From: a virus
Taxonomy: Duplodnaviria; Heunggongvirae; Uroviricota; Caudoviricetes
Length of the DNA: 16,017 nucleotides
Direction: 5' to 3' (one strand)
Virus record (IMG/VR): IMGVR_UViG_2622736468_000001
Both the position numbers and the translations under genes were made by a program. Each line of letters begins with the position of its first letter. The first letter of the stretch is position 1. A model generated the notes under the pieces. The model was not told the DNA's origin and ran no database searches. It worked only from the letters and a program-made list of their open reading frames with translations. Shown in pieces: positions 7,277-13,422 of this stretch.

Positions 7277-7677
7277 CTACGCGTATATAAGATGAAAAAA
7301 TGTTGCCTCAGTTGCCTCAAACAGTAATAAATATATATATGTGATTGATTTATATGTTTTATTTCTGTTTTTACTGAGGCAACAATTGCTCATTTTGAGG
7401 CAACAATTACCCATTTTGAGGCAACAACTGCCCATTTTGAGGCAACACGGCTGACAGGTTTTGTTTGTCTGAACGGAACCAACGTGATGTTGCCTCAAAT
7501 ACCCCCTATTGTTGCCTCAAATCGACATGATGTCGCCTCAATTTTTTTGTGATTATTAATCAAATCAATACGTTAAGACGTTTGAGGCAACTGAGGCAAC
7601 TGAGGCGACTGAGGCGACACGTTTTTCCTATATATATAAAGCGTGTGAATGATGTGATGCCTGGAAGGAGACGATTC
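7277..7677. repeat. Putative origin of replication: iterons (TTGAGGCAAC / GTTGCCTCAA) plus AT-rich tracts
   Basis: Four copies of TTGAGGCAACA at 22-bp spacing (about 7394-7449), three inverted copies GTTGCCTCAA(A) (7488-7540), four tandem 9-mers CTGAGGC(A/G)A (7581-7616), two more inverted copies near 7304-7321, and AT-rich stretches around 7326-7375 and 7627-7640. Confidence 0.7.
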
Positions 7678-8094
7678 ATGATCAAAAAAACAAGTGAAAC
7701 GGAATCTGTTGTGAGGTTCGTATCGGTACGAGGCAGAGCCACGCTTTATATACCTGACGAACATCTGCATCACTGCGATGAAAAACATATCCCGATCCTG
7801 ATTGTCTGGAAGCGAACGGTATACGCCGATGTGACATGGCTGAATGATTCGCTGATGTTGATACACCGTGACCTGTTTGAACGTGAAGAGTTCCGGCGGG
7901 ATATTGAAGAGCGGGCAGAAAAAATCTATGAGAAATATTCAGCAAACAGCAAAAGATCCGCACGGGCAATCGCTCACCATTTCATGACGCTGTATGACCT
8001 GAAAGCGGAAGATGCAGAAAAAGCGGCATGTGATTTATTCGATATGACAATGGGGATTATCCAGGAGTACCGGAACAAGGAGCGCAGACCATGA
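7678..8094 (+). CDS. Hypothetical protein (138 aa), coupled to the downstream ssb
   Basis: AAGGAG 8 nt upstream of the ATG at 7678; the longer track ORF from 7549 merely translates the iterons. Stop overlaps the ssb start (ATGA at 8091). Confidence 0.65.
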   Translation: MIKKTSETESVVRFVSVRGRATLYIPDEHLHHCDEKHIPILIVWKRTVYADVTWLNDSLMLIHRDLFEREEFRRDIEERAEKIYEKYSANSKRSARAIAHHFMTLYDLKAEDAEKAACDLFDMTMGIIQEYRNKERRP

Positions 8095-8540
8095 CAGCAC
8101 AGATTGCAGCTTACGGGCGGCTGGTGGACGACCCGCAGGTAAAACAGACCAGCAAGGGAACAGCGATGACGCTGGCGCGTATGGCGGTATCACTGCCATG
8201 CAGTCAGGCACAGGACGGACAGGCGACGTTATGGCTATCAGTCCTGGCATTTGGTAAGCAGGCCGACGCGCTGGCGAGACATGAAAAAGGCGACCTTATC
8301 AGCGTGGCGGGTAACATGCAGATCAGCCAGTGGACCGGACAGAACGGGGAAACACGGCAGGGCTGGCAGGTTATCGCTGACAGCGTAATCAGTGCCCGTT
8401 CGGTGCGCCCTGGCGGGAAGCGGGGGCAACAGGGGAAGGCGACTGAAGCACTGGAAAGAGCAAAACGACAGACCGGACAGCAGGGAAATCAGCCACCAGC
8501 GGGAGGTGATGACCCGTTCTCTGACGATATTCCGTTCTGA
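8091..8540 (+). CDS. ssb: Single-stranded DNA-binding protein
   Basis: OB-fold-like core alignable by eye to E. coli SSB (WLSVLAFGKQADALARHEKGDLISVAGNMQISQWT), glycine/glutamine-rich linker, and the canonical acidic tail DDIPF at the C-terminus. Confidence 0.85.
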   Translation: MTAQIAAYGRLVDDPQVKQTSKGTAMTLARMAVSLPCSQAQDGQATLWLSVLAFGKQADALARHEKGDLISVAGNMQISQWTGQNGETRQGWQVIADSVISARSVRPGGKRGQQGKATEALERAKRQTGQQGNQPPAGGDDPFSDDIPF

Positions 8541-8565
8541 ATGACAGCACAACATGAACCAGCAG

Positions 8566-8595
8566 ACCGACCGTTCACCAACAGAGGTAATTCAA
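8566..8595. repeat. 30-bp direct repeat, left copy (GACCGACCGTTCACCAACAGAGGTAATTCA)
   Basis: Identical 30-mer recurs at 11573-11602; the two copies bracket the methyltransferase cassette. Confidence 0.85.
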
Positions 8596-8764
8596 GCAAC
8601 CTTAAACACATCATAGGAGGTGAACACGTTGATTAAAGACTATATCCATAAAAATGACAACGGACGACCTTTACAAGAGCCTGCAATCCCGTTGCAATGC
8701 CCCTTTCATCTGGTAAGATGCAGGGGCGTTTTTGCATGACTCAACGATCACCGATAGGTAAAAA

Positions 8765-9904
8765 ATGTCCACACTTAAACCCGCCATCTTCTCTTTCTTT
8801 TCCGGCTCAGGTTTTCTAGATCTTGGCTTCGAAAACTCAGGCTACGAGGTGGTTTTTGTGAATGAATTTCACCCACCATTTATGGATGCTTACAAGCACT
8901 CACGAGCGGTGATGAACAAACCTATCCCACGTTTTGGATATGCAGAAGAGAGCATCGAGGAAGTTGATCACAATAAGTTGAAAGATAATATTAAAGCTCT
9001 CAAGAAAGAAAAAAGACTAATTGGCTTCATCGGTGGCCCACCGTGCCCTGATTTCTCCGTTGCAGGTAAGAACAAAGGTCGCGATGGAGAGAACGGTAAG
9101 CTGTCTCAAAGTTACATCAATATAATTGTTGAGATGAAGCCTGACTTCTTTTTGTTCGAGAACGTCAAAGGTCTTTATCGCACGCTCAAACACCGTGAGT
9201 TTTTTGAGCATCTCAAAAAACAGTTAATGGACGTTGGTTACATCCTTCATGAAAGGTTAATAAATTCGATTGAATACGGAGTCCCGCAAGACCGTGAACG
9301 CATTATTCTGTTGGGTTTCCAAAATAAAAGTCTAACCAAGATCTTTAACTGGAGTGGAAGATTATACCCAGATAGTAGTGCTTTTGAACATAATTGGCCA
9401 ACTACGAATGAATTTGTTGAGAACTCAACACTGGCAATGCCTGAGTCACTTCCTGAAGAGTTAACTGTTGACTACTGGTTTAGGAAAAACAAAGTTTCTG
9501 AACATGTGAACGCAAAACATGTGTTTACTGCTAGGGCTGGGTTAGTTCGCTTTAAAGCTGTAGCTGAAGGGGACGATAGCAAAAAATCTTACAAGCGTCT
9601 TCATCGCTGGAGATATTCTCCAACAGCTGCTTACGGTAATAATGAAGTACATTTGCATCCATATAAGCCACGTAGAATAACAGTTGCAGAAGCACTTGCC
9701 ATTCAGTCTTTACCGAAAGAATTCGAATTGCCATCTTACATGACTCTTTCAAATATGTTTAAAACTGTTGGCAATGGTGTTCCTTACCTTGCGGCTTTAG
9801 GCATAGCAAAATCCATATTAGAGCATTTAGGGATAAAAGATGAATTTAACAGCAATGAATCTTGTGAATGCGATAGCAAATCTACCCAAAAACAGGCAGT
9901 TTGA
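8765..9904 (+). CDS. DNA cytosine-5 methyltransferase
   Basis: Motif I FSGSGF, motif IV GGPPCPDFSVAG (PCP variant of PCQ), motif VI FENV, motif VIII QDRERIILLG, motif X GNGV. Confidence 0.9.
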   Translation: MSTLKPAIFSFFSGSGFLDLGFENSGYEVVFVNEFHPPFMDAYKHSRAVMNKPIPRFGYAEESIEEVDHNKLKDNIKALKKEKRLIGFIGGPPCPDFSVAGKNKGRDGENGKLSQSYINIIVEMKPDFFLFENVKGLYRTLKHREFFEHLKKQLMDVGYILHERLINSIEYGVPQDRERIILLGFQNKSLTKIFNWSGRLYPDSSAFEHNWPTTNEFVENSTLAMPESLPEELTVDYWFRKNKVSEHVNAKHVFTARAGLVRFKAVAEGDDSKKSYKRLHRWRYSPTAAYGNNEVHLHPYKPRRITVAEALAIQSLPKEFELPSYMTLSNMFKTVGNGVPYLAALGIAKSILEHLGIKDEFNSNESCECDSKSTQKQAV

Positions 9905-11744: not shown

Positions 11745-11813
11745 TGGTGTCGAACTGAGTAACTTTAAGTAACCTTGTGACCAGTTTTAAACGAGTCGCA
11801 AAAAGAGCCGGAG

Positions 11814-11837
11814 AAAAACCACGAATCTGTGGTTTTT
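11814..11837 (+). terminator. Terminator-like hairpin downstream of the small acidic ORF
   Basis: AAAAACCAC / GTGGTTTTT stem with a GAATCT loop; the T-run is part of the 3' arm. Confidence 0.5.
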
Positions 11838-12586
11838 ACTGAGCACGCTGTACACGGTGGAACATATGGTGGTCAGGAGACGGCAGGAGCAGCGACAGAA
11901 CGCGGCTCCGTATCAGTGGCATAAGCCAGAGCCACAAATGAGGAATTTCAAAACCCCTTCTAAAGGTATTTTCATGAAAATCAGCCTTCGAATACATACA
12001 CACGAAAACTTTGATTTAGGCTTAACCCGTTGATTCTTCCACAATCCTCAATTTGAGGAAGTCGGCGTGGTAACTCATTGAGATTAAAGCAAAGCGCAAA
12101 ATTGCGCTGGCTGAATAATCATTATGATTACGCAGATGATTAAGGCCTAAGCCGTTGATTCTTTCGAAATCCCCCATTGGGGGAAACCGGAGCGGTTACG
12201 GCGGTAACTTGTTGATATTGTTCCAAAGCTCATTTTTGAGCTTTGGCCTGCTCAGTTTATTCAACTTCCGTCAGTGGTGGGCGTTGAGAAACACTGCTGC
12301 GTGGTATTACTCTAACCCATTGATGTTTATTGCTCATTTACTCGATTATTTGAGTTGTTCAAATTCACCAGTCGTAAAACCATGATTTGTACATCCCCGA
12401 TATCGGGGTATGTAAACCATCCAGACCGGGCCAGCCAGCCCTGATTTTTACATCCCTCACTTCTGAGGGCTGATAACAAACCATCTTTAAGAGGGTCAGA
12501 ACTACGAAATTTTCGTAGTTTAACTTTCATCCAGTGCATCTCCGAATTACGGGTATGTAACCACAGCTATTACGAGGCGATTGTTG

Positions 12587-12979
12587 ATGCGTGATATTCA
12601 GCAGGTTCTGGAACGCAGGGGAGCGTGGGCGGCAAATAATCGCGAGAATGTGACCTGGTCATCCGTTGCCGCAGGATTTAAGGGGATTATTCCGGCAAAG
12701 ATAACATCACGCCCACAGTGCTGTGACGATGATGCGATGGTGATATGCGGGTGCATAGCCCGCCTTTACCGGAACAATCGCGATCTGCATGAGTTGCTGG
12801 TTGATTACTACGTGCGGGGGATGACGTTTATGTCACTGGCGCAAAAACATGAATGCTCTGATGGGACTATCGGAAAGCGGCTGCAAAAAGCTGAAGGTGT
12901 TATTGAAGGAATGCTGATGATGCTGGATGTTCGGCTGGAGATGGATCGGTATGTTGAGCGCGATTCAGTGACGGCATAA
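12587..12979 (+). CDS. Phage antitermination protein Q family (QuuD/YbcQ-like)
   Basis: 130-aa ORF with GAGG upstream of the ATG at 12587; contains the family-typical stretch WAANN...VTWSS.AAGFKG...[17 protein letters not shown]...[15 protein letters not shown]...[18 protein letters not shown], as recalled from the DLP12 Q-like protein. Confidence 0.8.
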
Positions 12980-13265
12980 CGCGCATAAAAAAACCGCACT
13001 CATGAGGAAACTGCGGCGGAGAAGTCAGACTTGCCAATCAATCATGAAAAACGTAATCGCCTGATAATTATGCCACGAAGCACGGAAAAACAGTACAGGC
13101 GGTGAGATATAGCCCTCAAATGGAGGGAAAATCCCCTAAAGCGAGGGATATCCATCAAAACGAGAGAACATCCCCTAAAATGGGGGATTTGCATCACGGA
13201 AAGGTGTCCATGACTGCTCTCCGCGCTATCGGAGAGGCTTCTCGGCGGTTTTCGCTGAACGCATT

Positions 13266-13422
13266 CAACGTGATGTTGCCTCAAATACCCCCTATTGTTG
13301 CCTCAAATCGACATGATGTCGCCTCAATTTTTTTTGTGATTATTAATTAAATCAATACGTTAAGGTGTTTGAGGCAACTGAGGCGACACATTTTTCCTAT
13401 ATATATAAAGCGTGTGAATGAT
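13266..13422. repeat. Second copy of the iteron block (direct repeat of 7480-7653)
   Basis: Near-identical to 7480-7653 except for two fewer CTGAGGC(A/G)A 9-mers and a few substitutions; preceded at 13106-13200 by three short GC-stem palindromes (CCCTCaaatgGAGGG, CCCCTaaagcgAGGG, CCCCtaaaatGGGG). Confidence 0.8.

Follow-up and report, generated by a model that had tools for sequence, protein, structure and literature searches.

In the plasmids R6K (alpha, beta and gamma origins), P1 (incA) and F (incC), the initiator also binds additional, distant clusters of iterons, which modulate initiation by looping, handcuffing or titration, and in phage P4 the crr locus is required in cis. The replication origins of phage-inducible chromosomal islands (PICIs) have so far been described as one compact element of iterons and AT-rich DNA by the pri/rep gene. 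In Gram-negative PICIs the iterons are located 3' of this gene (PMC6092414, PMC10111431), and a distal or split origin unit is not mentioned in these two descriptions. We analyzed the virus record IMGVR_UViG_2622736468_000001 (Caudoviricetes), a stretch of 16,017 nt referred to below as the window, in which part of an iteron-containing origin (block A) reappears as a second block (block B) at a distance of 5.8 kb. A first-pass annotation of this sequence had suggested that the two blocks might form a functional bipartite origin similar to ori and crr of P4, or else that the second block is the stump of a related replicon. Our preferred reading, to which we assign a probability of about 0.55, is that block B is a redundant third origin unit, a copy of the second of the two units (U2) that make up the origin, which arrived by recombination of the right arm, is probably bound by the initiator and is not required.

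The window is an Escherichia coli Gram-negative PICI integrated at tRNA-Gly. This assignment is based on the int and alpA genes, the C4/isrK RNA, an initiator of the DUF927 family that matches PDB entries 8tch and 5dgk, and the presence of iterons 3' of the initiator gene. Over positions 1-13473 the window has 99.8% identity with a segment of E. coli S1-KEN-03-A, designated H1, which is a twin of the window island free of the insertion sequence (IS) found in the window. The H1 island is about 13.9 kb in size and is situated between tRNA-Gly and a glycoside hydrolase gene that adjoins an ETT2 remnant; its attR is a repeat of the 18-bp 3' end of the tRNA-Gly gene.

Structure of the origin and of block B

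In a repeat search of the window, segments 7464-7657 and 13250-13426 were found to share about 95-97% identity overall, in three repeat pairs: 7464-7548 with 13250-13334 (85 nt, 94%), 7542-7600 with 13329-13387 (59 nt, 93%) and 7601-7657 with 13370-13426 (57 nt, 95%). Pairwise alignment of blocks A and B required a single gap of 18 nt, equal to two 9-mers, and there was a 1-nt length difference, one extra T, in a T run. Identity was 97.4% in the gap-free core columns, and strict homology stops at 7653 and 13422. The 9-mer iteron TGAGGCRAC is present 18 times in the window, with 13 copies at 7302-7618, five at 13275-13387 and none elsewhere. The expectation is 0.18 copies per window, and a count of 18 was reached in none of 200 shuffles. 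Thus the near-identical reappearance of 7480-7653 at 13266-13422 with two fewer 9-mers, as first annotated, is upheld by the repeat search, the alignment and the 9-mer count.

The origin itself (7284-7653) lies directly 3' of the initiator gene and is quasi-palindromic, with two units, U1 and U2, in inverted order, the latter being block A (Table 1). The four iterons on the + strand of U1 are spaced 21 bp apart, and its AT-rich stretch of 55 bp is 83.6% AT; the corresponding stretch of U2 is 42 bp long and 78.6% AT. Each of these units alone fits the published description of a PICI origin. Block B, one unit of 173 bp, duplicates U2 once more as a direct repeat; all five of its 9-mers are perfect, and its AT-rich stretch of 43 bp is 81.4% AT. 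Because five perfect cognate 9-mers surround an 81% AT stretch, the island initiator should bind block B after induction, and B may serve as a redundant secondary helicase-loading site.

A scan with the sigma-70 consensus gave no + strand promoter in block A or block B, and U1 carries the same TATA element facing the opposite way. For these reasons the possibility that B is mainly a promoter module was rejected, and the TATA element is counted here as part of the origin.

Distribution of B-type blocks

A survey of 5426 complete E. coli genomes identified the TGAGGCRAC iteron type in 14. In six of these the origin occurs alone, in five it is combined with a B-type block, and three have only a related block, which we designate B'. 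The five combined cases are three genomes with the island type of the window, L002, and L009, which is at a different att site. B is absent in 6 of the 11 genomes with a TGAGGCRAC-type origin. The most informative comparison is with L140, which has an initiator identical at 712 of 712 residues, the same tRNA-Gly att site, a 13-iteron origin and an intact right arm with attR, but no block B. Since an island with an identical initiator has no B, the block is not obligatory; judged from these genomes, it is dispensable in this island type.

The B' blocks are found in L005, L006 and L007, islands that have GGTAGAYA or GGTGGATA iterons in their own origins. They are 85-88% identical to any A-type block, and the differences are unevenly placed: none of 48 iteron-core columns differs between B' and blocks A and B, as against 17 of 106 other columns (P = 0.0011). 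When all copies of B and B' are taken together, the iteron-core columns are invariant and 10 other columns are variable. In comparison with L003 and L004, B' shows up in the right arm as a clean indel of about 255 bp. B and B' have a common right junction, at which TGAT is followed by CTGAATGGT; their left boundaries differ, both being near the origin centre. In L003 to L006 no distal block was found that matches the iteron type of the island's own origin.

The B block of the window is closer to the L009 origin (L009A, 98.0%) than to its own block A (97.4%), and L010B is 99.4% identical to L009A. Duplication in situ with gene conversion was considered as a source of B and is unsupported, B being marginally nearer the L009 origin than its own block A. 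Metagenome contigs hold more copies of the window-type arrangement of B with the lambda-type iterons described below, among them a diverged copy, L137, with four contiguous iterons. The plasmid collection, searched with the origin region, gave no match, and a contig scan with TGAGGCRACTGAGGCRAC was uninformative: its 120 hits were unrelated, for the most part tandem repeats from other phyla, and only the Leclercia locus L035, with just two copies, seemed relevant.

Split origins in a second iteron family

In islands L142 and L144, only U1, with TGGGACAAG iterons, is located beside the initiator gene. It is followed by SSB-ProQ-PerC genes and then, about 2.1 kb downstream and near the right end, by the cognate U2. 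The predicted origin of these islands is physically split; the two islands are too alike to inform on covariation. Complete E. coli genomes with a distal block of this type number at least 75. For most of them a second matching place was found by neither search, and these genomes may also have split origins. L141, a PICI at tRNA-Pro, has a full TGGGACRAC origin plus a second U2-type unit near its right end, and shares the same PerC protein accession with L142. L143 is an IS-degraded island without an initiator gene.

Three configurations were therefore seen: U1 and U2 adjacent, U1 and U2 with cargo between them, and U1 and U2 adjacent plus a distal U2. We infer that the third is most simply a recombinant of the other two through the SSB/ProQ/PerC/Q backbone. 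In the history that we propose, an island with an intact origin would have recombined with a right arm that carried a distal U2, thereby gaining B at the place where some relatives keep the sole right half of an origin split by accessory genes. Such recombination, in a right arm prone to it, would account for the constant right-end sequence beside every B and for the movement of B-type blocks independently of the initiator. Comparison of these islands shows that in one group of E. coli PICIs the origin consists of two separable units, which can adjoin one another, have about 2 kb of accessory genes between them, or number three in all, and that the distal unit travels with the right arm independently of the initiator.

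Lambda-type iterons adjoining block B

Directly upstream of B is a non-coding array of iterons of the type recognized in lambda-like origins (O-type iterons); on its other side is the promoter-proximal region downstream of Q. At about 83% identity the array matches both ori iterons 1-4 as annotated in phage 933W and the O genes in 96 phage records, and this likeness is limited to the iterons. The array was also considered as a fragment of an O gene; this was rejected, as protein-level similarity to phage O is confined to the repeats that the iterons encode. No AT-rich region adjoins the array, and the 80-bp linker (13191-13270) is 42.5% AT. Together the array and B form a composite of 350 bp that is missing at this place in L002 and is kept in the twin genomes and in the metagenome copies; three of the 5426 complete genomes have it.

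Comparison of the window with L137, counted by eye, gave about 5 changes per 76 nt in the O-type iterons and about 3 per 90 nt in their flanks. Each of these two lineages has one or two damaged iterons, and the third iteron, degenerate in the window, is perfect in L137. The O-type iterons thus look slightly decayed. It has been reported that ectopic ori-lambda iterons on plasmids block theta replication of lambda, even without the AT-rich part (PMC3349717, PMC4488673), and a role of the array as a decoy is conceivable.

Alternative explanations of block B

The suggestion of a functional bipartite origin of the P4 ori/crr type holds in part: the same iterons do occur at two loci, 5.8 kb apart, as they do in P4 (crr 4291-4590, ori 9086-9809); B is near att, like P4 crr; and the origins of L142 and L144 are physically split. 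In its obligatory form, in which the initiator must bind both A and B, with looping, for replication to take place, we consider it very unlikely for the window. Here a complete origin of U1 and U2 already adjoins the initiator gene, B' accompanies non-cognate initiators, L003 to L006 do without a distal block of their own iteron type, and related islands lack B, namely L140 with its identical initiator and 6 of the 11 genomes with the origin type. The analogy with P4 is apt for the split islands and not for the window island. As to the stump of a second replicon or tandem island, with an initiator gene removed by an IS66 insertion, an IS66-family element does begin 40 bp right of B. In the IS-free H1, however, B is followed by CTGAATGGTGATAATCACCAC..., about 300 bp of normal right-end sequence with arm-type repeats and then attR. 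Because the IS-free twin has B about 300 bp from attR, B is not a stump made by IS66, and this second suggestion is scarcely credible. Nor does B in relatives accompany a different initiator gene of its own: no initiator gene adjoins B or B' in any of the loci with flanks examined.

That B is an inert relic, a recombination scar without effect on replication, copy number or competition whether it is bound or not, is possible, if somewhat doubtful. The block is dispensable and patchily distributed in a mosaic right arm rich in repeated units, near-identical islands have drifted to 2, 3 or 4 contiguous iterons, and the neighbouring lambda-type iterons appear to be decaying. An inert sequence would be harder to reconcile with the intact 9-mers and AT-rich core of B, with the absence of variation in the iteron cores of all B and B' copies as against 10 variable columns elsewhere, and with unit boundaries that are exact in three independent cases. 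It is also unlikely that the distal units and O-type iterons are trans-acting modules, either decoys that titrate the initiators of rival islands and of the helper phage, or hitch-hiking origins fired by foreign initiators. Such a role would suit the occurrence of B' in islands whose own initiator should not recognize it, the fusion of B to four O-type iterons in a composite kept even in the diverged metagenomic L137, and the reported block of lambda theta replication by ectopic iterons. The O-type iterons, however, are not better conserved than their flanks and are damaged in each lineage, the composite is rare, and no co-resident rival TGAGGCRAC island was found in the three genomes that have B' only.

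Several points weigh against our reading of B as a redundant unit gained with the right arm. The conserved iterons of B' could reflect present function and not history. The exact unit boundaries in three independent cases may point to selection for the distal unit, as may its recurrence next to attR in both iteron families, in which case "redundant by-product" would be too dismissive a description. A TGAGGCRAC island with a split origin, which could have been the donor of B and B', was not found among the complete E. coli genomes. Finally, B of the window and B' occupy different positions in the right arm, and B is joined to lambda-type iterons; a simple recombination model leaves both facts unexplained. 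A more far-reaching proposal, which we think rather unlikely, is that PICIs of the DUF927 type use a modular two-unit origin that can work kilobases apart, with the attR-side unit under selection, so that B and the O-type iterons would be a functional distal site, either a helper-responsive loading site or a decoy for the helper O protein and rival initiators. If so, origin halves would be exchanged among satellites as weapons or hitch-hiking devices. Under the reading that we prefer, in which B is a redundant, non-essential origin half, the conclusion for the window is a modest one.

The initiator and interchangeable replication modules

The 712-aa initiator is related to the SaPI Rep and Cch self-loading helicases (Table 1). 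Its only solved relatives are PDB 8tch, a "Pathogenicity island protein" (1.2e-13), and 5dgk, an "Active helicase"; the initiator therefore belongs among the Rep-type helicases of such islands. Alignment with the initiator of L003, an island with TGGGACRAC iterons, gives 94-98% identity for residues 1-450 and 77-83% for residues 451-704. The C-terminal third thus varies with the iteron type, which would fit a C-terminal iteron-recognition domain.

One and the same island backbone was observed to carry interchangeable replication modules (L004 9504-9724; L005 9150-9400; L006 7630-7920; L003 8807-9096). In L004 the initiator gene is annotated as "DNA primase family" and is followed by the P4 type-1 repeat TGTTCACC; in L005 a primase-family protein is found with GGTAGAYA iterons; variants of the DUF927 protein are paired with TGGGACRAC or GGTGGATA iterons. 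The GGTGGATA iteron type includes the DnaA-box core TTATCCAC.

Cargo between the blocks

The first-pass annotation had described the blocks as enclosing the whole cargo region. A restriction-modification pair (8765-10916) is indeed located between them; the same interval also holds genes of the island backbone, namely the hypothetical gene at 7678-8094, SSB (the single-stranded DNA-binding protein) and Q. It had further been proposed that recombination between A and B would delete or swap the cargo. Deletion by this route is possible, and no deletion product of the 5.8-kb interval was found among the 14 complete E. coli genomes with this iteron type. The junctions of cargo exchange, as determined by comparison with relatives, fall between A and B, near 8568 and near 11286-11544. 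The variable segment is bracketed by perfect 30-bp direct repeats, which predict loss of the restriction-modification cargo by recombination. The sequence of this repeat is GACCGACCGTTCACCAACAGAGGTAATTCA; relatives L002 and L009 have it in single copy, at the start of a small open reading frame (ORF).

Iteron-like short repeats with a spacing of about 12 bp are found at 11290-11440, of the types AAAAGTGCGCA / AAAACTGCGCA and AAACCGATCA. They occupy the non-coding stretch between the restriction-modification genes and a small ORF and are kept in L003 and L005.

Other genes and the right end of the island

The integrase gene forms the left end of the island and, in H1, adjoins the tRNA-Gly attL. 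All annotated genes of the H1 island, alpA among them, are on the + strand, giving a rightward gene order. The C4 RNA scored 77.7 bits against an Rfam gathering score of 45, and isrK scored 48.3 bits, which is below its gathering score of 50. The isrK-like RNA and the C4 antisense RNA (P4 CI/seqA-type immunity) sit within a long Icd/Ash ORF. Further content of the island includes a frameshifted Rha gene, the Icd/Ash region, DUF4222 and small ORFs. A cos site in the neighbourhood of B was considered and rejected, as a search with lambda cosN gave no match better than chance.

Upstream of the Q gene there are hairpin-rich repeat pairs, 12012-12074 / 12137-12199 and 12389-12415 / 12534-12560, one of which has the form GTACATCCCCGATATCGGGGTATGTAA; a search of Rfam assigned no family to them. 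In L137 an in-frame TAG is present in the Q antiterminator frame at about 2540-2560 (island orientation), and Q may be inactivated there.

The right ends of these islands carry repeated units, 1-3 per island, each headed by the palindrome ATGGTSATRATSACCAC and each also holding CCACCGGAACAAGGA, a TTACGAAAATTTCGTAA hairpin and an AACCGGAAAAAATCCGGTA hairpin. The palindrome is at 13427-13443 in the window and at 14423, 14816 and 15197 in L002, and is found also in L003, L004 and L005. Every B and B' block abuts a unit headed in this way.

In the window the right end is interrupted by the IS66-family insertion. The first IS66 copy is broken at about 14044 by a second, inverted copy with tnpC at 14082-15620 and tnpB at 15670-16017, both on the - strand. 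The nested copies give an inverted repeat of 113 nt (99%) at 13932-14044 / 15905-16017.

Table 1. Coordinates of features in the window and, in the last row, of the split origin in L142 (own numbering of that locus)
Feature	Coordinates	Strand	Details
712-aa initiator, DUF927	5138..7276	+	PF06048, E = 3.8e-42
Origin unit U1	7284..7446		outer TATATA; 2 contiguous iterons (-, 7302-7319); AT-rich 7320-7374; 4 iterons (+, 7375-7446)
Origin unit U2 (block A)	7464..7653		3 spaced iterons (-, 7489-7540); AT-rich 7541-7582; 4 contiguous iterons (+, 7583-7618); TATA element TATATATATAAAG 7629-7641
Block B, third unit	13250..13422		3 spaced iterons (-, 13275-13326); AT-rich 13327-13369; 2 contiguous iterons (+, 13370-13387); TATA element TATATATATAAAG 13398-13410
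Four lambda-O-type palindromic iterons	13104..13190		spacing about 20 bp; non-coding, directly upstream of B
Conserved right-end unit, start	13423..13462	+	CTGAATGGTGATAATCACCAC...; follows every B and B' block
IS66-family insertion	13463..16017		terminal GTAAGCG..., tnpA 13534-13935, truncated tnpB; Pfam HTH_Tnp_1, DDE_Tnp_IS66, TnpB_IS66; absent from H1
Variable cargo segment	8565..11602	+	direct repeats 8565-8594 and 11573-11602
Type II methyltransferase	8765-9904	+	PADLOC MTase_II, 3.1e-164
Type II restriction enzyme	9840-10916	+	PADLOC REase_II, 7.3e-124
Tyrosine integrase	1..1215	+	Pfam Phage_int_M, Phage_integrase, Arm-DNA-bind_3
AlpA-family regulator, PICI marker	1858..2061	+	PF05930, E = 2.4e-20
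P4-type immunity RNA region, isrK-like and C4 antisense RNA	4004..4192	+	Rfam
Hypothetical gene, island backbone	7678-8094
SSB gene, island backbone	8091-8540
Q-family antiterminator gene, conserved right-arm backbone	12581..12979	+	PF06530, E = 1.6e-49
Split origin of L142	4725-4870 (left unit), 7015-7165 (right unit)		L144 likewise

Comparison with known replication systems

The window island agrees with PICIs of the EcCICFT073 type (Fillol-Salom et al. 2018, PMC6092414) in having its origin immediately 3' of pri/rep with iteron sets that flank an AT-rich region, in the order int-alpA-...-pri-ori-SSB, in the PerC family genes found in relatives and in an initiator related to SaPI Rep. It differs in that the origin is an inverted pair of units with a third unit 5.8 kb away beside attR, and in that the units of relatives are separated by accessory genes. 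The new elements, mentioned in neither of the PICI descriptions cited above, are an origin of two modular, separable units and a distal unit that is mobile. Islands of this group offer a test system for how much of a PICI origin is needed, for the positioning of the self-loading Rep helicase, and for the part played by orphan iterons in competition of satellites with one another or with their helpers.

The array upstream of B resembles ITN1-4 of ori-lambda, as found in lambda and in Stx phages such as 933W, in its four palindromes, each about 19 bp long and of ATCCCTCAAAACGAGGGA type, which have the spacing of the phage iterons. Unlike the phage origins it is outside any O gene, has no AT-rich region after its last iteron and includes one degenerate iteron. 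The multi-site iteron replicons R6K, P1 and F are stable plasmids with copy-number control, whereas PICI replication comes as a burst once a helper has induced it.

Phage P4 (X51522) and the window island both have initiator-binding repeats at two loci several kilobases apart, one of them near att; the window island has a P4-like immunity region (C4/CI RNA, Icd, Ash); and some sister islands, such as L004, combine an alpha-like primase with the P4 type-1 repeat. The crr of P4 is a pair of 120-bp direct repeats. It lies immediately 3' of the alpha gene, at about 200 bp from attP and about 4.8 kb from ori. In the window the block that adjoins the initiator gene is a complete origin, and the distal block is a single, apparently dispensable unit that is absent from an island with the same initiator (L140) and that, as B' in L005, L006 and L007, does not match the specificity of the resident initiator; the initiator itself is a DUF927 protein similar to SaPI Rep and not an alpha-type primase-helicase.

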